From Nannocystis bainbridge (lineage in GTDB: Bacteria; Myxococcota_A; Polyangia; Nannocystales; Nannocystaceae), in the NCBI RefSeq assembly GCF_028368995.1, contig NZ_JAQNDL010000002.1, forward strand, positions 545,724-609,723: a stretch of DNA of 64,000 nt. The letters are read 5' to 3'. The notes beneath the pieces were generated by a model, which had not been told where the DNA came from, made no database searches, and was given only the letters and a program-made list of their open reading frames with translations. Position 1 is the first letter of the stretch; the number at the start of each line of letters is the position of its first letter. Made by a program: the position numbers and the translations under genes. This document shows, piece after piece, positions 2,283-38,478 of the stretch.

Positions 2283-3257
2283 CTATTGCCGGGTGTGGGC
2301 GACGCCTCGCAGCTCGGCGGTGAGCGGCGGAGTGACGCCGGTCCAGGTGAGGCCGTCGGGGCTGTAGGCGATGTTGCCGCCGACGCCGACGGCGACGTGG
2401 CGCTGGCCGTCGCTGGCGACGTCGTTCAGGTTGGTCAAAAATGGCGAGGGCCGGGCGACCCAGGTGATGGCGTCGGTGGAGGCGAGGATCTGGCCGCCGC
2501 CGCCGACGGAGATCCAGCCGCCGGGGCCGTAGGTGATGCCGCGCGGGTCGGCGGCGAGGTTGAAGAGCGGGGTGTAATTCCAGTTCAGGCCGTCGCCCGA
2601 ATAGGCGGACTTGATCGGGCCGAGCATGGCGAAATTGGGGGCACCGTGGCCGAGCGCGCCGTAGCGATCGCCGGTCGGGCTGCCGTCGATGCGCTGGACC
2701 CAGCCGACGCCGTCCTGCCAGTTGAAGGCGCCGAAGTTCATGGCGTCGGCCTGGTAGTTGCCGATGGCGACGAGGGTGACGCCGTCGCCGGCGAGGTCGA
2801 TGAGCATGTGCTTGGGCGCGGGCAGGTCAGGCCGGGTCCAGGTGATGCCGTCGTCGGACTGGAGCGTCTCGGCGCCGGCGCTGTAGTCGCCGCCGACTGC
2901 GATGAAGCGGGTGCCGTGCCAGCGCACGGCGTAGAGGTCGCGCGAGGAGGGGCTCGAGGAGGCGCTCCACTCGACGCCGTCGTCGGAGTGGAGGATCTTG
3001 CCGGCCTGGCCGACGGCGACGTACATCTCGGCGCCGTAGGCGACGTCGTTGAGGGCGGTGGTGATGCCGGAGGTGGAGATGGTCCACTGGGCGCCGTTGG
3101 CGGAGCGCACGATGGCGCCGGCGTCGCCCACGGCGATGAAGAGGTCGACGCCCACCGGGCCGCCGGTGCCGCTGTCGCTGTCGGTGTCGCCGGCAGGCGG
3201 GAAGAAGATGCAGCCGGAGACGGCGAGGACGAACGACGCGACGACGACGCGGAACAT
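2283..3257 (-). CDS. BNR/Asp-box repeat (sialidase-like beta-propeller, Ycf48-like) lipoprotein
   Basis: Lipoprotein signal VLAVSGC. Repeated SxDxGxTW Asp-boxes: HSDDGVEWSA, QSDDGITWTR, YSGDGLNWNY, YSPDGLTWTG, RSANGAQWTI. Confidence 0.8.
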   Translation of the reverse strand: MFRVVVASFVLAVSGCIFFPPAGDTDSDSGTGGPVGVDLFIAVGDAGAIVRSANGAQWTISTSGITTALNDVAYGAEMYVAVGQAGKILHSDDGVEWSASSSPSSRDLYAVRWHGTRFIAVGGDYSAGAETLQSDDGITWTRPDLPAPKHMLIDLAGDGVTLVAIGNYQADAMNFGAFNWQDGVGWVQRIDGSPTGDRYGALGHGAPNFAMLGPIKSAYSGDGLNWNYTPLFNLAADPRGITYGPGGWISVGGGGQILASTDAITWVARPSPFLTNLNDVASDGQRHVAVGVGGNIAYSPDGLTWTGVTPPLTAELRGVAHTRQ

Positions 3258-3583
3258 GGCCCGGCAAAGCTAGCCGCGCGCGCCACGGGTGTCGAGGCGC
3301 GGCGCGGCGCGGCGCGGCGGCCCGCGGTGACGCGCGCCGACGCGATACCGGCGACGGATGACGTGGGTCGACGTTCGGCGCGGGGAGTGAGCGTGACGAG
3401 GCGGAGCGCGTGGCCGCACCGAGCCGGGTCGAGGACGGATGCCGAGCTCCGCGCGGAGGCTTCACGTCACGCGTCGGAGCCCTGTGCGCGGTGAGGCTTC
3501 GCGCGGACGCTCGGGTCGTGCTCCTCACTCGCGGGCCAGCTGTCCCGAAGGACATGTGGGCCCGGAGCCGCTGCGGCGGCCCT

Positions 3584-4165
3584 CTAGCTGGTCGCCTGCG
3601 GCAGGCGGCGGGGGCGGCGGTAGGGGGTGTTCTCCAGCGGGTTGTCGCCGACCAGCGAGGGGCCGAGGAGGTGCTCCATCAGGTTGAGCAGCTCGATGCG
3701 CTCCTCGTCGGTGCCGCGGGCGCGCGCGAGGTCGTAGAAGAAGGCCGGGATGGTGAGGGCCATGAACATGGCCACGAGGCCCAGCTTGGGGCCGGTGAGG
3801 CCGGTGAGGCCGAGCCAGGCCAGGCTGGTGGCCCACATGATCCAGAAGCTGGCCTGGCGGGCGAACGGGCCGCGGGTGAAGCGACACTGCACGGCGGTCC
3901 CCTGGGGCATCGGCACGAGCTCGGCCTCGAGGGTCATGCGGCGCATGATGGCCGGGCCGGTGTCGACCACGCCGGCGGTGACGTTCTGGCACACGCGGAA
4001 CTTGCGCGCGCCGAGCTCGGCGAGGAACCGGCGGCGGCTGCGGCTGCGGGCCGGGAAGCCCTCGAGCACCTGGATGTTGGCGTCGCCGCGGAGCCGCGCC
4101 AGGACCTCGGGGGGCGCGAGGTCGACGTGGTAGGTCAGCGCTTCGGGCAGGGCGCGCAGGGGCAC
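3584..4165 (-). CDS. hypothetical protein with C-terminal hydrophobic helices
   Basis: 193-aa ORF with natural composition and a WIMWATSLAWLGLTGL...LVAMFMALTIPAFFY segment. It lies 90 bp downstream of the SEDS gene on the same strand. Confidence 0.5.
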   Translation of the reverse strand: MPLRALPEALTYHVDLAPPEVLARLRGDANIQVLEGFPARSRSRRRFLAELGARKFRVCQNVTAGVVDTGPAIMRRMTLEAELVPMPQGTAVQCRFTRGPFARQASFWIMWATSLAWLGLTGLTGPKLGLVAMFMALTIPAFFYDLARARGTDEERIELLNLMEHLLGPSLVGDNPLENTPYRRPRRLPQATS

Positions 4166-4256
4166 GTGCGCGCGAGTATTGGCGATTTCCCCGGCGCTCG
4201 CCAGCGACTCGCGGTTCGGGCGACGCGCAGCGGGCGTGCGCCCGCTCGGCGGCGGC

Positions 4257-5588
4257 TCAGGAGCGCGCGACGCGGGCGTTGCGGCGAGGGCCGGCGGTGA
4301 CGGTGGCGGCGCGCTTCCACGGCCACCAGGCGCGGCGCGGCGGCTCGGCGGAGCGCTGGCGCCGGTCGGTCCGCGCCGGGCGCTCGGCCGCGGGGGCGCG
4401 GCTGCGCTGGTCGCTGATCCGCCACGGGCGCGGGCGGCGGGAGATCGAGAGCAGGATCCCGGTCGCGCCCATGCTGACGAGCAGCGAGGAGCCGCCGTAC
4501 GACAGGAACGGCAGGGTGATGCCCTTGGCCGGGATCACGTCGAGGACGACCGAGATGTTGATCAGGGCCTGGAAGCCGAACAGGGCCGACAGGGCGACGG
4601 CGAGGTAGGTGCCGAAGCGGTCGGGGGCGCCGCGGGCGGCCACGAGCCCGCGCCAGACCAGCAGGCAGAACAGGCCGATCACGGTCCACACGCCGACCAG
4701 GCCGAGCTCCTCGGCGATGCTGGCGAGGATGAAGTCGGTGTGGTTCTCGGGCAAAAACCCGAGCTTCTGCCGGCCGGCGCCGAGCCCGAGGCCCCATGTG
4801 CCGCCCGAGCCGACGGCGATCAGCGACTGCTGGATCTGGTACGACTGCTCGCCCGAGAGGAAGTCGAGCAGGCGGCCCTTGCGGAAGCCGACGCCGACGA
4901 TCTGCGACCAGGCCAGCGGCGCGGCCAGCATCATGGCGGCGACCACGTAGGTGATCCGCGTGCCGGCGACGAACAGCGCGGTGAGCGTCACGGCGCCGAG
5001 GAGGATCGTGGTGCCGAGGTCCTTCTCGAGCAGGACCAGGACCATGGTCAGCGAGGCGATCAGGAGCGGCGGGAGGAAGCCGGCCTTGAAGCGGCGCACG
5101 CGCTCGCCCTGGCGGGCCAGCATGGCCGAGAGGAACATCGCCAGGAACACCTTGGCGAGCTCGCTCGGCTGGATGTTGATGCCGGGGGCGCGGATCCACC
5201 GGCGGGCGCCGTTGACCTCGTCGCCGACGGCGAGCACGAGCAGCAGGCCCATGAGGCCGATGCCCATCAGGTGCGGGGCGAAGCGGCGGAAGATCCGGTA
5301 GTCGAGCCGCGACGTGAGGACCATGACGCCGGTGCCGAGCGCGAACAGCACGCTCTGGCGGCCGAGGAAATACTCCCAGTCGTGGTAGCGCACCCGCGCG
5401 GTGTAGACGCTGGCGCTGTAGACCATGACGAGGCCGAGGCAGGCCAGCGACATGGCGGCGAAGAACAGCCAGGGGTCCATGGCCCGCCGCTCCTCGCCCG
5501 CGTCCGCGACGAGCGACGGCGAACCCTCCTCGGGGTCGGCGACGAGGTCGCATCCCGGGTCGGGGGCCGCGGTCTCGTTGGGGGTCAC
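4257..5588 (-). CDS. SEDS-family peptidoglycan glycosyltransferase (FtsW/RodA/SpoVE)
   Basis: Motifs SELAKVFLAMFL, QSYQIQQSLIAVGSGGTWGLGLGAGRQKLGFLPENHTDFILASIAEELG, and GATGILLSI. About 10 TM helices. An alternative start MDPWLFF lies at about 5480. Confidence 0.88.
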   Translation of the reverse strand: MTPNETAAPDPGCDLVADPEEGSPSLVADAGEERRAMDPWLFFAAMSLACLGLVMVYSASVYTARVRYHDWEYFLGRQSVLFALGTGVMVLTSRLDYRIFRRFAPHLMGIGLMGLLLVLAVGDEVNGARRWIRAPGINIQPSELAKVFLAMFLSAMLARQGERVRRFKAGFLPPLLIASLTMVLVLLEKDLGTTILLGAVTLTALFVAGTRITYVVAAMMLAAPLAWSQIVGVGFRKGRLLDFLSGEQSYQIQQSLIAVGSGGTWGLGLGAGRQKLGFLPENHTDFILASIAEELGLVGVWTVIGLFCLLVWRGLVAARGAPDRFGTYLAVALSALFGFQALINISVVLDVIPAKGITLPFLSYGGSSLLVSMGATGILLSISRRPRPWRISDQRSRAPAAERPARTDRRQRSAEPPRRAWWPWKRAATVTAGPRRNARVARS

Positions 5589-27041: not shown

Positions 27042-27800
27042 TCAGAAGCGGCCGGTGAGGCTGACGAGGGCGCCGCGCGGGGTGGGGTTCATGCCGGCGG
27101 AGAAGCGACGGGCGCGGTCGTTGCGGTGGAGCAGGGGGATGAGGGTGCCGATGGCGGTGCCGGCGAGGGAGCCGAACAGGACGTCGGTCCAGAAGTGTTT
27201 GCCGGCCTCGACGCGCAGGACGGCGGTGGCGGCGGCGAGGCCCATCGCGCCCAGCCACAGGGGGACGGCGGCGCGGGCCCGCGGGTGGCGCAGAGTGAAG
27301 ATGGTGGCCCAGGCGCTCATCATGGCGAAGGCGGTCGAGGTGTGACCTGAATAAAAGGACAGGCGGGCCTCCTCGGCGTTGACGTCGCCGAGCTCGCTCT
27401 CGGGCTCGTAGCTGTAGGGCCGCGGGCGCCGGACGGCGAGCTTGACGAGGTTGTTGAGGCCGACGTTGACGGTGAGGACCTCGAACAGGACGACGACGTC
27501 GCGGGCCCAACCGGCCGCGGCGTGCCGGTAGGAGCCGGGGGCGCGCCGGCCGGTGACGAGGGTGTCGGCGAGGTCGGCGAGCACGGGGATGGCGATGGCG
27601 CCGTAGAGGAGGGCGTCGGAGGCGTGGGCGGCGGCGAGGTTCTGATTGCCGAGGACGCGCCGGTCGAGGGCGTTGATGTGGCTGCGATCGCAGGCGCTGC
27701 AGCCGGGCCAGCGCATGTCGCGAGCGGCGAGATCGATGCCGATGGCGGTGACGAGGCCGAGGGTGATGACGGGGACGTCGACGGCGGGCCGCAGGCGCAT
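27042..27800 (-). CDS. PAP2-family phosphatase (phosphatidic acid phosphatase type 2)
   Basis: Motifs KLAVRRPRPY (KxxxxxxRP), SFYSGHTS (PSGH) and RVEAGKHFWTDV (SRxxxxxHxxxD). Start taken at MRLRPAVDV. An alternative upstream start (28178) adds a signal-peptide-like MPRRLLSALLVVLTASPAAA plus a linker that is the translation of the hairpin repeats. Confidence 0.75.
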   Translation of the reverse strand: MRLRPAVDVPVITLGLVTAIGIDLAARDMRWPGCSACDRSHINALDRRVLGNQNLAAAHASDALLYGAIAIPVLADLADTLVTGRRAPGSYRHAAAGWARDVVVLFEVLTVNVGLNNLVKLAVRRPRPYSYEPESELGDVNAEEARLSFYSGHTSTAFAMMSAWATIFTLRHPRARAAVPLWLGAMGLAAATAVLRVEAGKHFWTDVLFGSLAGTAIGTLIPLLHRNDRARRFSAGMNPTPRGALVSLTGRF

Positions 27801-27902
27801 GAGGTGCGGCGGGAGTGATGGAGGAGGGGGCGGGAGCGGGGGAGCGGCGGCGGGGACGATGCCCGCGGGCGTGTCGGCGGTGGGCGGAGCGTCGGGGGCT
27901 GC

Positions 27903-28060
27903 GCTGTCGGACATGTCTTCGGGGACATGTTCGGAGGGGCCGGTGGGTGTGGTGGTCGTTTCGGACATGTCTTCGGGGACATGTACGGAAGGACCGGTCG
28001 GTGCGGCGGACTTGGCGGACATGTCTGGGGAGACATGTGCGGAGGGACCGGTGGGCTGCC
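27903..28060 (+). repeat. ~54-bp tandem repeat x3, each unit carrying a double hairpin GGACATGTCTTCGGGGACATGTWCGG
   Basis: tcggacatgtcttcggggacatgttcgg... / tcggacatgtcttcggggacatgtacgg... / ggacatgtctggggagacatgtgcgg. It lies between the divergent PAP2 gene (-) and the gene starting near 28370 (+). Confidence 0.85.
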
Positions 28061-28369
28061 AGGCGCCGAGTGACTCGCGAGTCGGGGCCAGCGCGGTCCG
28101 GGCGGGGACGAGCGGGTGGGCGGCGGCCGGCGAGGCGGTCAAGACCACGAGCAGGGCGGAGAGCAGGCGGCGCGGCATCGCGGGTCGGCCGAGTATGCCC
28201 GGTCGCGGCGGGACCGGGCAGCCGCGAGATGGTCTTCGGGACAGGTGAACCCATGCGGTCCGCGGCGAGGAGTGGCGGCTCGGGGGATTCGCGGGCGAAG
28301 CACGATGTTTGCGTCGATCGCGCGCGGCTGGCGGCGGGCGCACGCGTCGCGGTAGATTGCGTCTCTGGC

Positions 28370-29689
28370 ATGCAGACCGAGACGTACGCGGAGCTCGAGG
28401 CACGGTTGACGACGGCGGTTGCGAGCGCGGCGGGCGGGGACGCGGCGGCGGCGGAGCGGCTGGCGGACGAGCTGGAGGCGCTGGCGAAGGCGCCTCCGTG
28501 CCGCGAGGGCTGGCCGCGGCCGGGCAGCGTGGCGTACATGACGTTCGACGCGTTCCTCAAGGTCGAGGGAGCAGGCCGGGCGCCGCTGGAGCGGCTCGCG
28601 GGGCCGTTTTTGCGGGCGATCGCGGCCCACCCGGAGACGCTGGGGGTGCCGCATCGGTTCGCGCCGGCGACGATGCTCGGGCCGTCGGCGATCCCGCTGC
28701 TGCTGGCGCTGCTGGACCGCGGGCTGCGATCGACGTCGCGGGCGACGATCGAGGCGCTCGGCGAGTACAACCCGGGTAACGAGGTGGGGTTCAAGCTGGC
28801 GAGCGAAGCGGTGGCACGATTGCTGGCGTACACCGACGGTGAGGCGGTCGCGGCGGGGTTGCTGGGGCTCGAATGGAACGACGAGCGCATGTGGCTGCTG
28901 TTCCGGGTGCTGACGGAGGCGAACGCGCTGCGGCCGGGCGAGGTCGAGCCGGGGGCCGCGGCGGCGCTGCGGGGGCTGGTGGCAGGGACGGCGACGATCT
29001 CGGGCTCGGGGGCGGACCGGCTGCGGGCGCTGCTGCTGCGGGCGAAGATCATCCCGAAGTCGATGGCGCCGGCGATCCGTCTGGCGACGCTGCCGAAGCA
29101 GCTGCCGCAGACGGTGGCGGAGGCGCTGGCGCTGATGGGCACGTGGGGGCTGTCGGCGGCCGACGTGGAGGCGAAGGGTCCGGCGAGGCCGCGCGAGATC
29201 GAGGCGCTGGCGAAGCAGGTGAAGCCGCGGCTGCCGAAGGCGCTGACGCAATTGCTGGGCACGCACGCGAAGCTCGGCAACCGCGACCTCGGGCCGCCGG
29301 CGCGCATGCGGGCGCTGATCGGGGAATTGGCGGAGATGCTCGAGGAGCACGAGGAAGACGCGGACGAGGCCGAAATGGGCCGCGGGCAATACGACGTGCG
29401 TGGCTTCGATCCGGGGAAGAAGGCGATCCCGCTCGGTACCGATCCGTCCGGCGACCTGTTCTTCCTGGCGACGGGGGCGAAGTCGGCGGCCGGGACGGCG
29501 CCGGTGATCCGCTTTCGCCACGACCAGACGCTGGTGGGGACGATCGCGGCCGACTCGCTCGGCGAGTACGTGGCGCTGATCCTCGCCCGCGCGTACGCCC
29601 GCCGCGAGGGCCTGGAGTCGCAGCTGGACAGGCTCGAGGGGCGCAAGCGGACGATCGTGTCAGGGTACAAGCCGCCGAAGCGGGCGTGA
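28370..29689 (+). CDS. hypothetical protein (possible SMI1/KNR4-like C-terminal region)
   Basis: Natural composition from MQTETYAELEARL onward. The upstream part of ORF 27815.. is translated repeat DNA (TCLRGHV...). Alternative starts lie at 28229 and 28253. C-terminus reads GFDPGKKAIPLGTDPSGDLFFLATG. Confidence 0.55.
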   Translation: MQTETYAELEARLTTAVASAAGGDAAAAERLADELEALAKAPPCREGWPRPGSVAYMTFDAFLKVEGAGRAPLERLAGPFLRAIAAHPETLGVPHRFAPATMLGPSAIPLLLALLDRGLRSTSRATIEALGEYNPGNEVGFKLASEAVARLLAYTDGEAVAAGLLGLEWNDERMWLLFRVLTEANALRPGEVEPGAAAALRGLVAGTATISGSGADRLRALLLRAKIIPKSMAPAIRLATLPKQLPQTVAEALALMGTWGLSAADVEAKGPARPREIEALAKQVKPRLPKALTQLLGTHAKLGNRDLGPPARMRALIGELAEMLEEHEEDADEAEMGRGQYDVRGFDPGKKAIPLGTDPSGDLFFLATGAKSAAGTAPVIRFRHDQTLVGTIAADSLGEYVALILARAYARREGLESQLDRLEGRKRTIVSGYKPPKRA

Positions 29690-29774
29690 GCGGCCGGGTC
29701 GCACGCGAGGCGGAGGTCGGCCCACGGAGGCGACGGAGGGGGCGCGGGCGGCCGTGGGGGGTCGTGGCCGCTCG

Positions 29775-29833
29775 CTGCACAAACATGGCGATGTGTGCAA
29801 TGGCGGCTTGCACAAATGTGCCGCGGTGTGCAA
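29775..29833 (+). promoter_or_regulatory. two operator-like inverted repeats (TGCACA-N12-TGTGCA and TTGCACA-N12-TGTGCAA) directly upstream of the TetR gene
   Basis: ctgcacaaacatggcgatgtgtgcaatggcggcttgcacaaatgtgccgcggtgtgcaacc. Confidence 0.6.
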
Positions 29834-29837
29834 CCGT

Positions 29838-30779
29838 GTGACGGTGGACGGGGCGCGGGGCAACGGCGAGACGCGGGAGGCGATCCTCGACGCGACCGAT
29901 CGGCTGCTGACGAGCCGGGGCTTCCGCGAGGTGACGATGGACGACATCGCGGCCGAGGCGGGGGTCAGCCGGCGCACGATCTACATGTACTTCCCGAGCA
30001 AGATCGAGGTCGGGCTGTCGTCGATCGACCGGGTGGTGGCGCAGACGTTCGCGCGGCTGACGGCGCTGGCGAGCAGGGGCGGCGACCCGGCCGAGGTGCT
30101 GCGCGCGGTGCTGGTCGAGCGGGTGCTGCGGCGGTTCGACAGCGTGAGCGCGTATCGTCAGAGCCTGGACGAGCTGTTCGAGGCGGTGCGGCCGGCATAC
30201 ATGGCCCGAAGGACAGCCCACATGGCGCGCGAGGTGGCGCTGGTGGCGGAGGTGCTGGCGGCCGGGCGGGCGTGCGGGCGGTTCGAGCTCGACGACGCGG
30301 CGGCGACGGCCTCGTCGCTGGTAAAGGCGACGAACGCGTTCCTGCCGTACAGCCTGAGCGTGGTCGAGCTCGGGGAGCGAGCGAAGATCGAGGTGGAGGT
30401 CCGGCGCATGGCGGCGCTGCTGCTGCGGAGCGTGATGACGCCGGCGGGGCTGCACGCGGGGGCAGGGACGAAGAGCGCGGCGCAGACGAAGGGCGCGGCG
30501 CAGACGAAGGGCGCGGCGCAGACGAAGGCAGCGGCGACGACAGCGGCGACGACGAAGGCAGCGGCGAAGACTGCGGTGACGACGAAGGCAGCGGCGACGA
30601 CTGCGGCGACGAAGAAGCCTGCGGCGACGACGAAGGCCGCGGCGACGAAGAAGCCTGCGGCGAAGGGGACGACTTCGACGACGGAACCTGCGGCGACGAG
30701 GAAGCTCGCCGCGACGACGAAGACTGCGGCGAAGGTCGCGGCGCGGGTGAAGGGTCGGGGCCGCGAGCGGGCGGGGTGA
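29838..30779 (+). CDS. TetR-family transcriptional regulator with histone-H1-like Ala/Lys/Thr-rich C-terminal tail
   Basis: HTH TREAILDATDRLLTSRGFREVTMDDIAAEAGVSRRTIYMYFPSK. Tail AAQTKGAAQTKGAAQTKAAATTAATTKAAAKTAVTTKAAATTAATKKPAATTKAAATKKPAAKG. GTG start placed after the operators. Confidence 0.75.
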   Translation: MTVDGARGNGETREAILDATDRLLTSRGFREVTMDDIAAEAGVSRRTIYMYFPSKIEVGLSSIDRVVAQTFARLTALASRGGDPAEVLRAVLVERVLRRFDSVSAYRQSLDELFEAVRPAYMARRTAHMAREVALVAEVLAAGRACGRFELDDAAATASSLVKATNAFLPYSLSVVELGERAKIEVEVRRMAALLLRSVMTPAGLHAGAGTKSAAQTKGAAQTKGAAQTKAAATTAATTKAAAKTAVTTKAAATTAATKKPAATTKAAATKKPAAKGTTSTTEPAATRKLAATTKTAAKVAARVKGRGRERAG

Positions 30780-30794
30780 CGAAAGGCGACGGAG

Positions 30795-31922
30795 GTGAAG
30801 ATGCGATTGTCGACGGTGATTCTCGGGTGGTTGTCCGTGTCCACGTTGCTCGGCTGTGCTTCGGCGGCAGCGGCTGCGCCGGCGCCACCGTCACCTGCGG
30901 GGCCGCAGATGGCGGTGCCGGTGACGCCGCCGCCGCGGGGGCCGGATGGGCCGATCACGGCGGCCGAGCGCGACGAGGCGATCGAGGCGATCGCGCGCGA
31001 GCTGACTGCGAAGTACGTGTTCCCGGCCAAGGCGAACGAGGTGGTGAAGTCGATCCGGGCCCGCCACAAGCGCGGCGAGTACGACAAGCTGACGACGGGG
31101 CACGCGCTGGCGACGACGTTGACCGATCACGTGAACGCGGTGCTGCGCGACGCGCACTTCAACATCCGCTTCAGCAAGGAGACGCTGCCGCCGATGCAGG
31201 GCGGGGACACGCTGTCGCCGGAGGAGCAGGCCCGCTTCGAGGTGTTCAGCCGGCGCATGAACGGCGGGTTCGAGAAGGTCGAGCGGCTGCCGGGCAACCT
31301 CGGCTATCTCGAGGTGCGCGGGTTCGGGTTCCCCGGCCGCGGATTCGAGGCGGCGGCGGCGGCGATGGCGTTCCTGCAGGATACGGACGCGCTCATCATC
31401 GACATCCGTCGCAACGGCGGCGGCGACCCGTCGGTGGTGGCGTACCTCTGCAGCTATCTGTTCGCCGATCGGGTGCACCTGAACGACCTGTACTTTCGGC
31501 CAGCCGACGAGACGCACCAGTTCTGGACGTCACCGGTGCCGGGCAAGGCGTACACGGGCCGCGAGGTCTATGTGCTGACGAGCAAGCAGACGGGCTCGGC
31601 GGCGGAGGAGTTCGCGTACAACCTGCAGAACCTGCGGCGCGCGACGATCGTCGGCGAGGTGACGTGGGGCGGGGCGAACCCGGGCGAGATGGTCCGCCTC
31701 GGCGCGCACTTCTCGGCGTTCGTGCCGACGGGGCGGGCGATAAGCCCGATCACGAAGACGAACTGGGAGGGCGTGGGCGTGCAGCCCGATATCGCGACGC
31801 CGCCGGACGATGCGCTGCGCGTGGCGCAGGTCAAGCTGCTGGAGAAGCAGCTGGCGAAGGTGACCGAGCCGGAGCTGAAGGCGGGCCTGGAGGCGCGACT
31901 GCGCGAGCTGCAGCCGCAATGA
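30795..31922 (+). CDS. S41-family peptidase (C-terminal processing protease-like) lipoprotein
   Basis: Signal LLGCASA, the S41 core ALIIDIRRNGGGDP, and YVLTSKQTGSAAEEFAY. Confidence 0.75.
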   Translation: MKMRLSTVILGWLSVSTLLGCASAAAAAPAPPSPAGPQMAVPVTPPPRGPDGPITAAERDEAIEAIARELTAKYVFPAKANEVVKSIRARHKRGEYDKLTTGHALATTLTDHVNAVLRDAHFNIRFSKETLPPMQGGDTLSPEEQARFEVFSRRMNGGFEKVERLPGNLGYLEVRGFGFPGRGFEAAAAAMAFLQDTDALIIDIRRNGGGDPSVVAYLCSYLFADRVHLNDLYFRPADETHQFWTSPVPGKAYTGREVYVLTSKQTGSAAEEFAYNLQNLRRATIVGEVTWGGANPGEMVRLGAHFSAFVPTGRAISPITKTNWEGVGVQPDIATPPDDALRVAQVKLLEKQLAKVTEPELKAGLEARLRELQPQ

Positions 31923-31959
31923 CGCGGACGCCCGCGGATGACGCGGGCCGAGGTCGAGC

Positions 31960-32240
31960 TGTCGGAGTCACTGGCGAACGTGATGGAGCAGGGCCTCGCG
32001 GCGCGAGGATGACGACGCCCGCGGACGGCCCGTTGCGTGGAGTTCACGGCGAACTGGTGGAGAAACCGGCGAGGGCGTCAGAGTCGTGGCTCGAGCCGCG
32101 GCTGCGATGATGACCACGCCGCAGACGACGGGCGTGGGGCCCAGGGCGAGCTCGGGAGAAACCGGCGAGGGCGACGGATTCGCGGCTCGAGCTGCGGCTG
32201 CGATGACGACGACTCCGCAGACGACGGGCGTGGCCCAGGT
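31960..32240 (+). repeat. ~97-bp tandem direct repeat (about 2.5 copies) in the intergenic region upstream of the LysM gene
   Basis: gagaaaccggcgagggcgtcagagtcgtggctcgagccgcggctgcgatgatgaccacgccgcagacgacgggcgtgg is repeated with minor changes. ORF 32037..32297 is its translation artefact. Confidence 0.8.
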
Positions 32241-32487: not shown

Positions 32488-33123
32488 ATGCCGAAGCAGC
32501 GCAAGGTCGAGCCGGGAGATTGCCTGTCCAGCATCGCCTATGAGCACGGCTTCTTCAGCGCGACGGTGTGGAACGCGGGCGCCAACGCGGGGCTGCGGAG
32601 CGCGCGGCGGGAGCCCAACTTGCTGGTGCCCGGCGACGTGGTGGTGATCCCCGATCGGCGTGACAAGGGCGTCGGGTGCCCGACCGATCAGCGGACCCTG
32701 TTTCGGCGCCGCGGCGTGCCGGCCCGGCTCAACCTGGGGTTCGTCGAGGACGAGGAGCCGTGCGCGGACACGCCGTACGTGCTGCTGGTCGACGGGGCGC
32801 GCTTCGAGGGGGTGACCGACGGGGAGGGCCGGCTGTCGGTGCCGATCTCGCCGGCGGCCCGGCAGGCGCGGGTGATCCTCGGCGTCGGGCCGGAGGCCGT
32901 CGAGTACACGTTCAACCTCGGCCGGCTGCTGCCGCCCGATCAGGACGACGGCGTGCGCGCGCGGCTCGAGAACTTCGGCCACTCGTGCGGCGGCGAGACC
33001 GGGCCGCTCGGGCCGCAGACGGCGGCGGCGCTGCGCAACTTCCAGGTCGAGCAGGGGCTGGCGCCGAGCGGGATCGTCGACGACGAGACGCGCGCGCGGC
33101 TGTCGGCGCACCATGGCTCTTAG
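32488..33123 (+). CDS. LysM domain plus peptidoglycan-binding (PGBD_1) domain protein
   Basis: LysM: VEPGDCLSSIAYEHGFFSATVWNAGANAGLRSARREPNLLVPGDVVVIP. PGBD: GPLGPQTAAALRNFQVEQGLAPSGIVDDETRARL. It ends 12 bp before the next gene. Confidence 0.8.
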   Translation: MPKQRKVEPGDCLSSIAYEHGFFSATVWNAGANAGLRSARREPNLLVPGDVVVIPDRRDKGVGCPTDQRTLFRRRGVPARLNLGFVEDEEPCADTPYVLLVDGARFEGVTDGEGRLSVPISPAARQARVILGVGPEAVEYTFNLGRLLPPDQDDGVRARLENFGHSCGGETGPLGPQTAAALRNFQVEQGLAPSGIVDDETRARLSAHHGS

Positions 33124-33135
33124 GACAGGTGACAC

Positions 33136-36100
33136 ATGACGCGGTGGGTCGACACGATCGATAAGCGTGAGGTCCCGCGCCAGACCGCTGGCCGGCTGAC
33201 CTGGAGCGACCTCGACGATCTGCGCACGCCCGGACGGGCGCTGTCGGAGGACCTCGTGGCCTACGCGGTCGAGGATTTCTTGGGGGTCAAGCAGGATCGC
33301 GTGACGTGGGTCCGGCCGATCCTTCCGGTGCCGGACGGCGCGCTCGACGTCGACGATCACGCTGCGCCGCGGCTGACCTGTCGCGTGCTTTGCCACGGTC
33401 ACTACAGCTTGCTGGTGCTCGATCGCCACACGGGCGAATTGCTGCACCTCGATACGGCCAACCGGAATCACAACAACGCCCAGGCCGAGGCGCTGGTCGG
33501 CGGTGGGGGGCGGATCACGCACGCGGCGTGGGTGCCGAAGCAGCAGTCGGGGAGCAACAATTGCGGGCCGATGGTGGCGCTGATGCTGGCGGCGATCGCC
33601 GGGACCGACGGCGCGCCCGCCAACGTCCGCCGGGCGATCACGGGCGGGGTCTCCAACGACGCGGCGGAGCGGCTGCGCCGGGCGCTGCTCGATCACTTCA
33701 AGCCGATGTTCGTCGAGGACGACGAGGACGACGACGGCGCGCTCGAGGATGAGGCGCGGGGCGAGGCGCCGCGCGAGAGCTCCGGTGAGCCGCCGCCGGT
33801 GCTGTTGGACGAGGCGCCGGGCGAGATCGTCGACGACGTCGCGGAGGAGGACGAGCCGGGTGAGCCGCCGCCGGTGCTGTTGGACGATGCGCCGGACGAG
33901 ATCGTCGACGACGTCGCGGAGGAGGACGAGCCGGGTGAGCCGGTCGCCGAGGAGATCGACGTGGTGGTCGCGCGCGCGCCGTGGCTGCCGCCGGCGATCG
34001 ACTACGCGGGGTTCGTCGATCTGCGGCCGGTGCCGCCAGTGCCCGAGTCGTCGAACGTGCACGACGTGCCGCGCAGCGAGCACGCGGCGGAGGTCCGCTC
34101 GACGCACGCGCGCTCGCGCCTGCAGCTGGAGGCGCTCTACCTCGAGGACGCGGACGGGCAGCGCTCGCGGGCGTACCGCTACCCCGCCGACGTCGATCAC
34201 GCCGCGCCGGCGGAGGATCAGCGGTTCGCGTTCCGGGTCGACGATCCGGCGCCGCAGTCGATCCGCTGGCGGATCCGTCACGCGAAGCCGCTGCGGCGCG
34301 GGGTGCTCGAGCTGTTCGTGGCCGGTCGCGCCGAGCCGGTGTGGTCGCGCGCGCTGTCGGCGGAGGAGCTCCGAACCTCGCCCGGGGGCGAGCGCAGCGA
34401 CGGCAGCACGGTCGAGGGCGGGCTCGCGTGGACGGGCAGCTTCGCCGGCGGGGCGCCGGCAGACGGCCGGGTCCGCGCCGGCGAATCGCCGTACAAGCTC
34501 AAGCTGACGATCTTCAGCAAGACCGGCGCGGTGGTGGCGAAGCGGCAGGCGTGGACGTACTTCGACGTCCCGTATCAACACAAGTACGCGCTGCTGAGCT
34601 ACGTGCCGAGCACCGAGTTCGGCTGCTTCGGCGTCCGCTTCGATCCGGCGCGGGCGCGGCTCGACGTGTTCATCGACGCGATGTTCGCGTTCCTGCCGGT
34701 GACGCCGGTCGAGGCGGCGTGGGATCCGGGTCGCAAGGCGGAGATCGTCGCCAATTATCCGCGACGGATCCACGCCGACTGGAGCGGGCACTACGATCTG
34801 AGCTGCGACGGGGTCCGGGCCGCGCCGGTCATCGTCTTGAGCGGGCGGCACGTCCAGGACCTGCCCGCGATGGAGGGCACGGACAACCCGCTCAGCGTCG
34901 AACCGGCGCTGGTGCGCCGCATGGACCGGGACTCGCTCCACTTCTTCGCGTGGTTCCGCGACGGGATCGGGCGCTCGGGGCTGATGCTCCACCCGCTCAG
35001 CGCGAGCGTGAATCTGTTCGCGCCCTCGGCCTTCGACGAGGATCAAGCGAGCATGATGCTCAGCAGTCCGACGATCCGCGAGGACCTGCAACGGGCGCAG
35101 CGGAGCGTGCTCGAAGCGCTGCGCGAGGACGCGGGCTTCGCCGCGACCGGGGCTCGCATCGAGGTGCTCGATGAAGGCAGGCCCGACGCGCGGCCGCGGA
35201 TCGTGCTGCCGTTCGCGTCCAGGGTCGAGGAGCTCGATCCGGCGACGCACCGGGTCGCGCTCGACCGCCTGGTGACGGTGCTCAACGCGATCCGCGGCGA
35301 GCTCAACACCGACGTGCCGGTGTTCGTGACCGGCTGCATGAAGCGGAGCGAGCGCAGCAAGCTGCTGCGGCGACAGCACCACGACCGGGAGCGCGCGGCG
35401 CACGTGTCGGCGTACTTGCGCCGCGAGGGCGGGCTGGCGGCGCCAGCGTACCCCGAGGGGGCGACGGCGCGGCAGATGGTCGCGGGGCGCGGCTACGTGG
35501 TGCAGGCGAAGGACGGTCAGATCCGCGAGCAGGGCGGCGTCGAGATCGAGATCGGTTACACCGACGACGCCGAGTACTCGCAGGTGATGGTCGGGCGGAC
35601 GGCCTACTGCGCGCTCGTCCACGAATTCGGGCACATGCTGGGGATCCCCGACGAGTACATGACGTACGAGTTCGACACGTCGACCTGCAGCATCGCTTCG
35701 AGCCAGCCGCGGCTGCGGGAGATGTGCCTCGACAAGGGGATCGCGGCGCCGGAGTTCCCCCGCGAGGGCGCGAACCTGTTCCACGCGGCGTTGATGTCGG
35801 CGGGGGTGCGGTTCTACGAGCGCTACTACCTGACGATCGCCGAGGCGGTGGAGAAGGCGACGACGCTGGCGATGGGGGCGCCGCGGCGGTGGGACATCGG
35901 CGCGAACGAGACGGTGGCCGAGGCGACCGACGAGGCGTTTCACCAGCGGTACGACCATTTCGGGTTGATCGAGGCGCTGCACAGGGCGCGGCGGGCGGTG
36001 CAGCGGCACGAGGTGGCGCCGGTGCGGCTCCTGGCGTCGATCCGGCGGAAGATCCTGCGGACCGTCGCGGGGGCCAGGATCGCGTATCTGCGGGTGGTCA

Positions 36101-38478
36101 GCCGCGACACGCTGGCGCCGGTCCATCGCGTGGGGCCGGTGCGGGTGCTGATCGGGGTCGGTGTGTTCGACGGCGACGAGGTGCTGCACGCCAGCATCCA
36201 CGCGCGCCAGTGGCCGCTCACCTGCACCATCGCGCTGCCGCTGGGGACGCAGGTCGTGGAGGGGGTACACTTGCCCGCGACGGGCGACGGTCGCGTGCCA
36301 GTGACGCTGCGGTCGCGCTGGGCGTTCGAGGGGACCGGCGTGTTCACCTGCTCGACGCTGCGGGTGCGGTTCTTCGCGACCGCCGACGGCGATGCGCCGC
36401 TCGACGTGTTCGCCGGCCACACGCTGCGCGGGCGCGACCTCGGCAGCGCCGAGGGCGTGGTGCTGTACATGGAGGGCGAGCCCCAGGGGGCGGAGTTGGG
36501 GCTGCAGCTACGCTCCGACACGCACCTCTTGAGCCCCGACGTGGCCCGCGTCGAGCTCGGGAGCACGCGCGCCGCGCTCGACGTGTACGCGCCGGTCCAC
36601 GAGCCGCCGGCGGTGCCGCAGCCGCTGTCGGCCGCCGATCGGCTCGCTCCCGGCGCCGTCGTGCTGCTCGATCACGAGGACGCGCGTCGACCCCGGACCC
36701 TCGTCACCGTGCATCGCCCGCACGGGGCCACGCGGCGGCTGCGGCTGCGGCTGCGGGGCGGCAAGGTCGATCTGTTCGCGGCCGAGCGGGCCACGCCGGG
36801 CGAGGCGAAGCTGGGGGCCGAGCGGCGGCGCGGCGACGATGTCGCGTGGGAGTACGTGATCCCCGACGAGCGCTTCGACGCCAGGGGCCGCGCGTCGTTC
36901 TGGCTGGCCGGCGCGGCGGTCAGCGGGGCCGCCCGCGACGCCAGCGTGGAGCTGCGCTGGGAGGGCAAGCAGCTCGAGCTGGCCAGCGCGAGGCTGACGG
37001 TGGTGGACGTGACGCTGACGGCCACGGTGCCGGCGACGCGGGCCCGCACCGAGCGAACGGTCTCGCTGCGGCCGGTGACGGTGGGCGCGAATCAATTGCT
37101 GATCGCCCGCGACGGTGAGCGGCGGCGGGCGACCACCGACGATCAGGTGTTCGACGCGGCGCGGATGGGCGCGTCGCGGCTGGCGAAGATCCGGGCGACG
37201 CATCCGTACGCCACGACGGACTTCGACAAGAACCCGCCGCTGGTGCTGATCCGCGGGTCGCTCGGGGACTCGCAGGTCCGCGTCGATCTGGCGATCGCGC
37301 CGGCCGAGCTGGCGCCGGCCGTCGCGTGGGACATCGCGCGCGCGGCCGACGACACCATCGACGAGGCGCCGCCGGTGCTCAACCCGGGGGGCCTGCGCTG
37401 TACGTTCGGCGACGGGGCGACCGGTTCGTTCCACGTGCGGGCGCTGCTCGGCGGACGACCGCTGGCGGTCCTCAACCTCGTGATGGTGGCTGCGACGCTG
37501 CAGCCCGACGGCGACGGCGAGGACGAGCGGTCGCGGGCGGGGGTGGAGATAGCCCGACCGCACGAGATCGACGGGGATTCGATCGACAACGCGATGGCCC
37601 GCGAGTTTGGGCAGCCGCAGATCGTGCGGATCAAGAGCGGTGACTTCGGGGCCCAGCCGTGCGTGCGCCTGCGCGGCAAGGTGCGCCTGATCAGCGGCGG
37701 GCCGAGGGGGCGTCGCGGCCTCGATCAGGTGGCGGCAGGGTGGGTGCAGAACTTGACCCACGTGCTGGTGCGCTCGCGCTACGAGGGCGGGCGGCAGATC
37801 GAGCTGGGCCACGTGCACAACAAGGAGGGCGCGTCGATCCTGCGCCCGTTCATGCCCGGCGCCGACGCAGGGGACAGCTACTTCGTCGGCGCCGACGTCG
37901 CTATCGCGCTCGAGCAGGACGTCGGGGTCGACACGCCGATCCTGGACACGGGCCTCATGGGCCAGGGCGGCGCCGACTCGGTGCTGGGGAACAGCAAGTT
38001 CGAGGAGGTCTGGAACGCCCACGGGTTGGAGCTCCGGGTCGAGGCGCTCGACGCCCCGGCGACCGAGTTCTTCGTCCACTACCCGGGCCAGCCAGAGGCG
38101 CTGCTGACCCGGATCCGCTACGAGCACGACTTCCGCGCCTATCTGTGCGTGTGGACCAATTGCATCGGGGCGGCGGCGTCGAACAAGACCGAGTTCCGCG
38201 CGGCCAGCTACGCCGCCGACCGCTGCGTGGCGGTGCTCCGCCGCGTCGACTGGTCGCTGAAAGGACGCTGGCGGGTCCGCTGGGAGGGGCTCGTCGAGGG
38301 CGAGATCGCCGGGCCGGGCTGGGCGACGAAGATCCGGATCGAGCCGCTCGCGCCGGAGGACGAGCTGCGGGCGGTGCTGGACGCCACGATCGATGAAGCG
38401 AGGCCGGCGCGCGACGCGGGGGTCGAGCTGTACTACCCGACCGAGCTGCAGGTGTTCGCCTGGCAGGGCAGCGAGTGA
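33136..38478 (+). CDS. 1780-aa multidomain protein: N-terminal Ulp1/C48-like cysteine protease, acidic 28-aa tandem repeat, internal snapalysin-like HExxHxxGxxD metzincin motif
   Basis: HYSLLVLDRHTGELLHLDTAN aligns to the Ulp1 motif HWxLxvIDxxxxxIxYxDS. VPKQQSGSNNCGPMV aligns to QQxNGxDCG, giving His-Asp-Gln-Cys order. Repeat EDEPGEPPPVLLDEAPGEIVDDVAE x2. ALVHEFGHMLGIPDEY matches HExxHxxGxxD. There is no signal peptide. Confidence 0.8.
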   Translation: MTRWVDTIDKREVPRQTAGRLTWSDLDDLRTPGRALSEDLVAYAVEDFLGVKQDRVTWVRPILPVPDGALDVDDHAAPRLTCRVLCHGHYSLLVLDRHTGELLHLDTANRNHNNAQAEALVGGGGRITHAAWVPKQQSGSNNCGPMVALMLAAIAGTDGAPANVRRAITGGVSNDAAERLRRALLDHFKPMFVEDDEDDDGALEDEARGEAPRESSGEPPPVLLDEAPGEIVDDVAEEDEPGEPPPVLLDDAPDEIVDDVAEEDEPGEPVAEEIDVVVARAPWLPPAIDYAGFVDLRPVPPVPESSNVHDVPRSEHAAEVRSTHARSRLQLEALYLEDADGQRSRAYRYPADVDHAAPAEDQRFAFRVDDPAPQSIRWRIRHAKPLRRGVLELFVAGRAEPVWSRALSAEELRTSPGGERSDGSTVEGGLAWTGSFAGGAPADGRVRAGESPYKLKLTIFSKTGAVVAKRQAWTYFDVPYQHKYALLSYVPSTEFGCFGVRFDPARARLDVFIDAMFAFLPVTPVEAAWDPGRKAEIVANYPRRIHADWSGHYDLSCDGVRAAPVIVLSGRHVQDLPAMEGTDNPLSVEPALVRRMDRDSLHFFAWFRDGIGRSGLMLHPLSASVNLFAPSAFDEDQASMMLSSPTIREDLQRAQRSVLEALREDAGFAATGARIEVLDEGRPDARPRIVLPFASRVEELDPATHRVALDRLVTVLNAIRGELNTDVPVFVTGCMKRSERSKLLRRQHHDRERAAHVSAYLRREGGLAAPAYPEGATARQMVAGRGYVVQAKDGQIREQGGVEIEIGYTDDAEYSQVMVGRTAYCALVHEFGHMLGIPDEYMTYEFDTSTCSIASSQPRLREMCLDKGIAAPEFPREGANLFHAALMSAGVRFYERYYLTIAEAVEKATTLAMGAPRRWDIGANETVAEATDEAFHQRYDHFGLIEALHRARRAVQRHEVAPVRLLASIRRKILRTVAGARIAYLRVVSRDTLAPVHRVGPVRVLIGVGVFDGDEVLHASIHARQWPLTCTIALPLGTQVVEGVHLPATGDGRVPVTLRSRWAFEGTGVFTCSTLRVRFFATADGDAPLDVFAGHTLRGRDLGSAEGVVLYMEGEPQGAELGLQLRSDTHLLSPDVARVELGSTRAALDVYAPVHEPPAVPQPLSAADRLAPGAVVLLDHEDARRPRTLVTVHRPHGATRRLRLRLRGGKVDLFAAERATPGEAKLGAERRRGDDVAWEYVIPDERFDARGRASFWLAGAAVSGAARDASVELRWEGKQLELASARLTVVDVTLTATVPATRARTERTVSLRPVTVGANQLLIARDGERRRATTDDQVFDAARMGASRLAKIRATHPYATTDFDKNPPLVLIRGSLGDSQVRVDLAIAPAELAPAVAWDIARAADDTIDEAPPVLNPGGLRCTFGDGATGSFHVRALLGGRPLAVLNLVMVAATLQPDGDGEDERSRAGVEIARPHEIDGDSIDNAMAREFGQPQIVRIKSGDFGAQPCVRLRGKVRLISGGPRGRRGLDQVAAGWVQNLTHVLVRSRYEGGRQIELGHVHNKEGASILRPFMPGADAGDSYFVGADVAIALEQDVGVDTPILDTGLMGQGGADSVLGNSKFEEVWNAHGLELRVEALDAPATEFFVHYPGQPEALLTRIRYEHDFRAYLCVWTNCIGAAASNKTEFRAASYAADRCVAVLRRVDWSLKGRWRVRWEGLVEGEIAGPGWATKIRIEPLAPEDELRAVLDATIDEARPARDAGVELYYPTELQVFAWQGSE

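Follow-up and report, generated by a model that had tools for sequence, protein, structure and literature searches.

The stretch of DNA analyzed here, called the window, is 64 kb of high-GC sequence from Nannocystis bainbridge (contig NZ_JAQNDL010000002.1), and position 1 is its first letter. It contains a gene encoding a TetR family regulator (tetR), two palindromes immediately upstream of it (O1 and O2), and, directly downstream on the same strand, a gene encoding an IRBP-like S41 peptidase lipoprotein (Table 1). The regulator has a long basic tail at its C-terminus. An earlier sequence-only reading of this DNA had proposed that the regulator controls its own gene and possibly the S41 gene through the palindromes, and that the tail resembles those of H1 and AlgP. 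Comparison with related loci points to a conserved unit of operator, tetR, and S41 gene, on which the long tail is a lineage-specific elaboration.

The most likely start codon of tetR is GTG 29844, because the upstream alignment of the window and four Nannocystis genomes matches annotated MNGPRGNGETREA starts. Alternative in-frame starts are at 29838 and at 29754, the latter being the start in the list of open reading frames (ORFs). No Shine-Dalgarno sequence was found before GTG 29844. The TetR_N match of the product scored 56.6 bits (cut-off 24), which is above the Pfam gathering score, and there was a weak match to TetR_C_27. In an AlphaFold model based on 96 aligned sequences, residues 1-205 are all-helical, with eight helices and a predicted local distance difference test score (pLDDT) above 90. 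Foldseek comparison against PDB gave 374 matches at E<=1e-3, and the 50 matches listed are all TetR-family structures. These include MmfR, EthR2, the Rv0078-DNA complex, EthR, and FadR, with identities of 18-26%. Membership of the gene product in the TetR/AcrR family is confirmed by the Pfam helix-turn-helix match and the predicted all-alpha, two-domain fold. Its closest relatives are from Nannocystis (Myxococcota), and its core is 87-88% identical to that of N. pusilla. Sequence searches of PDB and NCBIfam found no close characterized relative of the regulator. No NCBIfam family scored above its cut-off for either the regulator or the S41 protein, and equivalog matches were far below their cut-offs.

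The motif TGCACA-N12-TGTGCA is present in exactly two copies in the window, with starts 33 bp apart. The chance expectation is 0.03 sites per window, and two copies were seen in none of 100 dinucleotide-preserving shuffles. Both copies had been read as 7-12-7 operators located in the leader of tetR. This description fits O2, which is a true 7-12-7 repeat, but not O1, which has a C at its left flank where O2 has a T. Both palindromes are immediately upstream of tetR, as had been stated; with GTG 29844 as the start they fall outside the coding region, and they could be part of either the leader or the promoter.

Forty loci encoding TetR relatives, taken from one-genome-per-species contigs (306 kb in total), were used for comparison, and 160 nucleotides (nt) upstream of each tetR orthologue were inspected. 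The palindrome TTGCAC(A/G)-N12-(T/C)GTGCAA is present in most of the loci. The 306 kb contain 27 sites with zero mismatches, all 27 of which sit 26-67 nt upstream of tetR, with none elsewhere. Lineages with the exact motif upstream of tetR range from Nannocystis to Armatimonadota. Two operator copies in tandem, with O1 at the same position as in the window, are found in N. pusilla, N. exedens, and N. punicea; N. radixulma has one intact copy and a decayed O1. A single copy is found in a Polyangiaceae metagenome-assembled genome (MAG) and in Armatimonadota (mostly Fimbriimonadaceae), where a TATAAT-like hexamer usually follows within about 10 nt after the operator. O2 is the counterpart of the single operator upstream of tetR orthologues in other phyla. 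Nannocystis operators have invariant half-sites, and their 12-nt spacers vary in sequence at a fixed length. Operators of other phyla have A/T-rich inner arms and an invariant C at position 12.

The operator sequence also changes together with the recognition helix of the regulator. Loci with the TGCAC..GTGCA motif encode (S/A)(R/K)RT(I/L/V)Y at this helix, and the loci without it (L019, L034, L035, and L039) encode GKG(S/T)(V/I)Y. The latter come from MAGs of Acidobacteriota, Eisenbacteria, and Gemmatimonadales, and their TetRs are more distant relatives. Upstream sequence is visible for three of these motif-less loci, and two of the three have other palindromes there, for example CTGACCA-N11-TGGTCAG in L035. 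This switch of helix and operator looks like co-evolution. Because the palindromes are kept only upstream of tetR across phyla and co-vary with the recognition helix, their prediction as autoregulatory operators of the regulator is strongly supported, in agreement with the autoregulation first proposed from the inverted repeats.

The 9-nt stretch between O1 and O2 (29800-29808) is conserved in Nannocystis, unlike the operator spacers. It reads ATGGCGGCT in the window and ATGGTGGCT in relatives, and with it a third palindrome becomes possible, TGTGCAA-N7-TTGCACA. This stretch could belong to a promoter, or it could offer another register for binding.

The S41 gene is the only conserved neighbor of tetR in the 40 loci. 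In 32 of them it comes right after tetR on the same strand, with 37-80% identity (tblastn with the window's neighboring proteins). No third conserved gene of the cassette was found in a reciprocal test with ORFs from five Armatimonadota loci. In the ORF list the S41 gene begins at GTG 30795, 15 nt past the tetR stop, and this is the spacing that had been reported. The likelier start is ATG 30801, because a GGAGG sequence sits 5 nt upstream of it, and the gap then becomes 21 nt. A scan of 29600-32100, including the tetR-S41 gap, found no terminator-like site, and the stop codon of tetR overlaps the start of the S41 gene in N. exedens. Given this synteny, the short gap without a terminator, and the stop/start overlap in N. 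exedens, the best reading is a tetR-S41 operon governed by the upstream operator. The suggestion that the S41 gene is the regulated target is strongly supported by this comparison.

Related loci include variants of this arrangement. At 2950-4587 of locus L006 (Nannocystis sp. RBIL2), a Phage_integrase-family gene (Pfam E=1e-24) ends where tetR homology starts, at residue 50. The S41 gene is kept, but the 5' end of tetR has been lost together with both operators, making this a natural operator-less variant that was probably produced by insertion of a mobile element. Two metagenomic proteins (P0232 and P0250) are distant TetR relatives called as fusions with a downstream secreted beta-lactamase-like serine hydrolase, which suggests that related TetRs pair with other secreted serine hydrolases.

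The downstream product had been described as an S41 peptidase lipoprotein. Its Pfam family and the lipobox-type signal read from its N-terminal sequence, MRLSTVILGWLSVSTLLGC, agree with that description, which had missed its place in the IRBP-like clade. In a PDB search with this protein, single IRBP (RBP3) modules matched at E=3e-31 and the four-module protein at 2e-113, and Ctp-type C-terminal processing proteases matched at only about 1e-5 (CtpB about 7e-5). Pfam also returned a weak match to Peptidase_S41_N (the IRBP N-terminal domain) and no match to a PDZ domain. At least 90% of 32 aligned S41 sequences keep Ser266 (motif TGSAAEE); the same alignment shows several conserved His residues and a Gly where Ctp proteases have their catalytic Lys. 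By sequence comparison, the product is a member of the bacterial IRBP-like clade, closer to vertebrate IRBP modules than to Ctp proteases. This clade is the proposed source of vertebrate IRBP by horizontal transfer (Kalluraya et al., 2023; PMC10120077). The same paper does not discuss regulation or gene neighborhood; "operon" is not mentioned in it, and "TetR" is present as a chance word match only.

Table 1. Features of the tetR-S41 locus (window positions; starts are the most likely ones, and operators are candidates).
Feature	Position	Strand	Basis and remarks
O1, distal candidate operator, TGCACA-N12-TGTGCA(A)	29776..29800	.	Exact motif match at 29776-29799
O2, proximal candidate operator, TTGCACA-N12-TGTGCAA	29808..29833	.	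Exact motif core at 29809-29832; ends 11 nt before start codon
tetR coding sequence	29844..30779	+	311 aa; GTG start aligned to orthologues' MNGPRGNGETREA; Pfam; third-position GC
TetR_N helix-turn-helix region	29883..30002	+	Pfam PF00440, E=2e-15; recognition helix VSRRTIYMYF
Predicted disordered basic Ala/Thr/Lys tail, aa 206-311	30459..30776	+	Composition; pLDDT 42-57
In-frame tandem DNA repeats coding the tail (periods 18, 30, 36, 69)	30467..30735	+	Tandem Repeats Finder
IRBP-like S41 peptidase lipoprotein gene	30801..31922	+	Pfam Peptidase_S41, 77 bits; Shine-Dalgarno GGAGG at 30791-30795

The tail of the regulator has about 106 residues and consists of 35% Ala, 24% Thr, 16% Lys, 7.5% Gly, 5% Arg, and 3% Pro, with two Glu and no Asp. 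Its net charge is +20, and its charge density is 0.19 per residue compared to 0.25 for a pure KPAA repeat. It has 17 Lys and 5 Arg, compared to 3 Lys and 25 Arg in the TetR core. The AlphaFold model shows no secondary structure in the tail, which is predicted to be intrinsically disordered. The DNA repeats that encode it include a period of 18 (3.9 copies, 94% matches) and a period of 30 (four copies, 88%), and all periods are multiples of 3. The protein repeat units named in the sequence-only reading, AAQTKG (three copies) and KKPAA/TKAAA, were found as claimed; KPAA is present twice and TKAAA four times.

Third-position GC in the ORF frame is 0.83-1.0 throughout, tail included, and orthologous loci translated to their stop codons also give tails; a frameshift or wrong-frame origin of the tail is thereby ruled out. 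A tail missing from orthologues and explained by a frameshift had been named as grounds for doubting it, and the opposite was found, since the complete Myxococcota orthologues examined have a basic tail. As a null model, six-frame translation of the window averages +3.5 per 30 aa (from Arg) and 0.9% Lys. A Lys share of 13% or more is seen in only 0.4% of the 30-aa segments from this translation, so the Lys-richness of the tail is not a by-product of GC content. The TetR tail is the only such Lys-rich segment in the window.

The likeness of the tail to H1 and AlgP is compositional only, judging from sequence searches. It is Lys/Ala-rich and repetitive, as had been noted, and is predicted to be disordered, but it belongs to no Pfam family, has no detected homologue, and is Thr-rich and Pro-poor with a lower charge density. 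The DNA-compacting role implied in the sequence-only reading is hypothetical. No Pfam match was found at E<=10 for this tail or for the N. exedens tail. The 1390 word-sharing candidates from two large protein searches included no homologue at E<=10. Queries of this type are probably suppressed by filters for composition bias, so the null results are no proof that other proteins lack similar tails. In the papers searched, neither a TetR with a C-terminal tail rich in Lys nor a TetR paired with an S41 protein was reported.

Tail length was compared among relatives by translating each locus to its stop codon and taking the residues after the last helix. Tails in Armatimonadota and other phyla have 0-10 residues, with the exception of L015, which has an unrelated non-basic extension of 41 residues. 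The Polyangiaceae MAG has a tail of 15 residues (net +5). N. pusilla, N. radixulma, and N. punicea have tails of 25-34 residues with a net charge of +10 to +12 and 16-21% Lys; the N. pusilla tail has 25 residues, on a core 87% identical to that of the window TetR. N. exedens has a tail of 123 residues (net +28) made of the repeat AAELxTKRxAAKQ, with a 51-nt period. Metagenomic orthologues have short basic tails too. Every complete Myxococcota orthologue examined has a basic tail, and Lys makes up 11-21% of the Nannocystis tails. No comparable tail was seen among 150 representatives at 50% identity, drawn from 1.84 billion proteins; two long proteins among them are read-through fusions to a downstream secreted beta-lactamase-like hydrolase. 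By these comparisons, this orthologue group has a short basic tail throughout Myxococcota. Repeat expansion produced the long form at least twice, independently in the window lineage and in N. exedens, with different repeat units.

Two sets of N. pusilla entries (P0001 versus P0002/L001) have near-identical cores and unrelated C-termini, which are Arg/Cys-rich and 45 aa long in the former and Lys/Arg/Pro and 25 aa long in the latter. This looks like a frameshift or an assembly difference within the tail-coding repeats.

The locus can be explained as a self-contained two-gene cassette in which tetR precedes the gene of an IRBP-like S41 serine peptidase, a secreted protein of the lipoprotein type. 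Ligand-free TetR would bind the 24-26 bp palindromes, which cover the last ~70 bp before its own start. Bound TetR would silence the promoter of tetR and the S41 gene, and a small-molecule ligand would release it. Each palindrome would most likely be taken by two TetR dimers, as in QacR, because the conserved outer pentamers are 19 bp apart centre to centre, beyond the reach of one dimer; inner operator positions are partly conserved in non-myxobacterial sites. The operator duplication in Nannocystis, with the two palindromes 33 bp apart, would allow as many as four dimers to line up along ~57 bp, bringing up to eight tails of +20 each. The tail would most likely make non-specific electrostatic contacts with flanking DNA or another polyanion, and such contacts would raise occupancy, slow dissociation, or bridge O1 and O2. 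Replication slippage of the in-frame repeats would have lengthened the tail here and separately in N. exedens. We consider the operator and the tetR-S41 operon to be a very probable part of this mechanism. For the tail, electrostatic contact with DNA or bridging of the operators is a proposal on which we are evenly divided. An autoregulated tetR-S41 cassette with a DNA-contacting tail is the best explanation overall, and we hold it with moderate confidence.

Several points weigh against this proposal. The binding of two dimers per palindrome is predicted from geometry only. A simple sigma-70 scan of 29600-32100 found no promoter. The tetR-S41 cassette is present in other phyla without any tail, and the length and sequence of the tail differ greatly between species with 87% identical cores, so that the contribution of the long form may be small. 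Homology of the tail to H1, AlgP, Hc1, or Hc2 was not detected. Finally, M. smegmatis Ku without its Lys-rich tail gains DNA affinity (PMC3553676), so a longer tail does not guarantee tighter binding.

Much of the same evidence bears on whether the long tail has a function. The TetR C-terminus is solvent-exposed, and the long tail could have arisen through replication slippage in GC-rich, low-complexity sequence and be neutral for function, with only a short basic stub, or nothing, being of importance. Its confinement to two Nannocystis lineages with unrelated repeat units would be expected in that case, as would the youth of the repeats (18-nt units 94% identical), the 25-residue tail on the very similar core of N. 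pusilla, and the different Arg-rich, apparently frame-shifted C-terminus of N. pusilla P0001. The tail-less cassettes of other phyla and the lack of such a tail among the 150 representatives also fit. Neutrality does not readily account for a basic tail in all complete Myxococcota orthologues examined or for a Lys content in Nannocystis far above the six-frame average of 0.9%. Nor does it readily account for the near absence of acidic residues, the frame-preserving periods with coding-like third-position GC, and the cationic character kept in both independent expansions. We regard a neutral tail as rather unlikely.

The tail might also act on something other than DNA. It could target polyphosphate granules, RNA, or anionic membrane lipids, or it could be a Thr-phosphorylation switch for myxobacterial Ser/Thr kinases, and its H1 likeness would then reflect regulation or tethering instead of compaction. 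The compositionally similar KPAA/KTAAA domain of AlgP localizes to polyphosphate granules and is needed for their spacing (PMC9239181), and a Thr content of 24% is unusual for H1/AlgP-type tails. However, the tail is fused to a sequence-specific DNA-binding protein whose sole conserved partner is its own operon, and the shorter orthologous tails are rich in Arg, Lys, and Pro with few Thr, so the Thr-richness is not conserved; a target or switch of this kind is very unlikely. The remaining question concerns the inverted repeats themselves, which could be leader RNA hairpins (an attenuator) or sites for another regulator. Each repeat could fold into a 6-7 bp stem with a 12-nt loop, and neither a Shine-Dalgarno sequence before tetR nor a promoter was detected. 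Against this, the motif moves with tetR across phyla and shifts when the recognition helix shifts, the whole window has no Rfam match, and the Armatimonadota site is upstream of a -10-like box, which places it outside the transcript. The RNA-hairpin reading was rejected, mainly because the arms are invariant instead of showing compensatory, co-varying changes, and the two possibilities together are highly improbable. Operators bound by TetR remain our reading of the palindromes.

The surrounding genes were also inspected. A PAP2-family gene is on the minus strand at 27042-28403, and an upstream plus-strand ORF (within 27042-29689) has a weak SMI1/KNR4 match (E=0.0055). Downstream are a gene for a PG_binding_1 protein (32488-33123) and a 1780-aa ORF (33136-38478) with no Pfam match. 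None of these neighbors (27042-29689 and 32488-38478) is conserved beside tetR outside Nannocystis. The intergenic region downstream of the S41 gene (32059-32233) has two tandem 79-nt units, 96 nt apart and 90% identical. Each unit holds a CCACGCC...GGCGTGG hairpin; the units were not found elsewhere in the window and have no Rfam match.

In its outline the system is probably an ordinary TetR autoregulatory circuit. What is notable is an operator shared across phyla, the pairing with an IRBP-like S41 gene, and a lineage-specific, expandable polycationic tail. Current understanding is not overturned; basic low-complexity tails have evolved repeatedly on bacterial DNA-binding proteins. A candidate operator (TTGCACR-N12-YGTGCAA), its predicted repressor, and a putative target are identified by the locus, and all three are shared by lineages from Myxococcota to Armatimonadota. 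This provides a regulatory handle on bacterial IRBP-like S41 proteins, and the effector of the TetR would show what those proteins respond to. There is also a natural series of tail lengths on one TetR scaffold (essentially none, 15-34, 106, and 123 residues), which is suited to studying how a sequence-specific DNA-binding protein is affected by Lys-rich low-complexity tails.

A broader scenario can be proposed, although we think it improbable. A dedicated ligand-sensing TetR and its operator may have co-travelled with the bacterial IRBP-type S41 gene across phyla, and the length-tunable, possibly Thr-phosphorylatable polycationic tail of the Nannocystis repressor may make it a DNA-bridging, nucleoid-associated protein in which repeat number sets the repression threshold. 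If such co-travel occurred, the TetR effector would reveal the natural small molecule with which the ancestors of vertebrate IRBP were associated. Should this effector be a lipid or isoprenoid, handling of hydrophobic ligands would predate the transfer to vertebrates.

Repressors of the QacR/EthR type share the TetR fold with the regulator described here, and its long 24-26 bp palindrome, with outer arms too far apart for one dimer, is like theirs. EthR reportedly covers about 55 bp as an octamer. That footprint is comparable to the ~57 bp spanned by O1 and O2. QacR is described as binding its site as a dimer of dimers (PMC3241653); the two-dimer stoichiometry in Nannocystis is predicted from geometry. 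The window TetR differs in being only 18-26% identical to any solved TetR, in having a secreted peptidase as its putative target instead of an efflux pump or monooxygenase, and in its long C-terminal tail, which the solved relatives lack.

The bacterial IRBP-like S41 peptidases (PMC10120077) and the S41 protein of this locus are alike in the match to a single IRBP module and in the retained catalytic Ser. The difference is the link to a dedicated TetR and operator seen here.

Most regulators of the TetR family have a basic N-terminal extension (PMC3241653). The N-terminal arm of SimR, which is basic and disordered, touches the minor groove of the DNA and increases affinity (PMC3241653). Both SimR and the window TetR thus have a flexible, positively charged extension on a TetR core. 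The extension is C-terminal here, on the ligand-binding/dimerization domain, and has 106 residues compared to about 28 in SimR. It is also repetitive, Lys/Ala/Thr-rich, and variable in length between species, whereas the SimR arm is Arg-rich.

AlgP's C-terminal domain consists of KPAA repeats with KTAAA variants (PMC9239181). The KPAA domains of AlgP and PhaF resemble the window tail in their Lys/Ala-rich tandem repeats, predicted disorder, and unstable repeat number, and the KPAA and TKAAA units of the window tail are reminiscent of the two AlgP units. The window tail has no sequence homology to them, has more Thr, less Pro, and a lower charge density, and sits on a sequence-specific local repressor instead of a nucleoid- or granule-associated protein. 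Lys-rich low-complexity tails have evolved repeatedly and in a lineage-specific manner on unrelated DNA-binding proteins, and the PAKKA tails of mycobacterial Hlp/HU and M. smegmatis Ku modulate DNA binding (PMC3553676). Among myxobacterial transcription factors, Anaeromyxobacter CarD is described as having an H1-like domain in a passage of PMC2919716 that cites Garcia-Heras 2009. Hlp/HU, Ku, and CarD are similar to the window TetR in having a lineage-specific, Lys-rich low-complexity tail on a DNA-binding protein. They differ in host protein family and repeat unit, and the effect on affinity is negative in Ku. A basic tail of this kind is unusual for a TetR, but it has precedents on other bacterial DNA-binding proteins.

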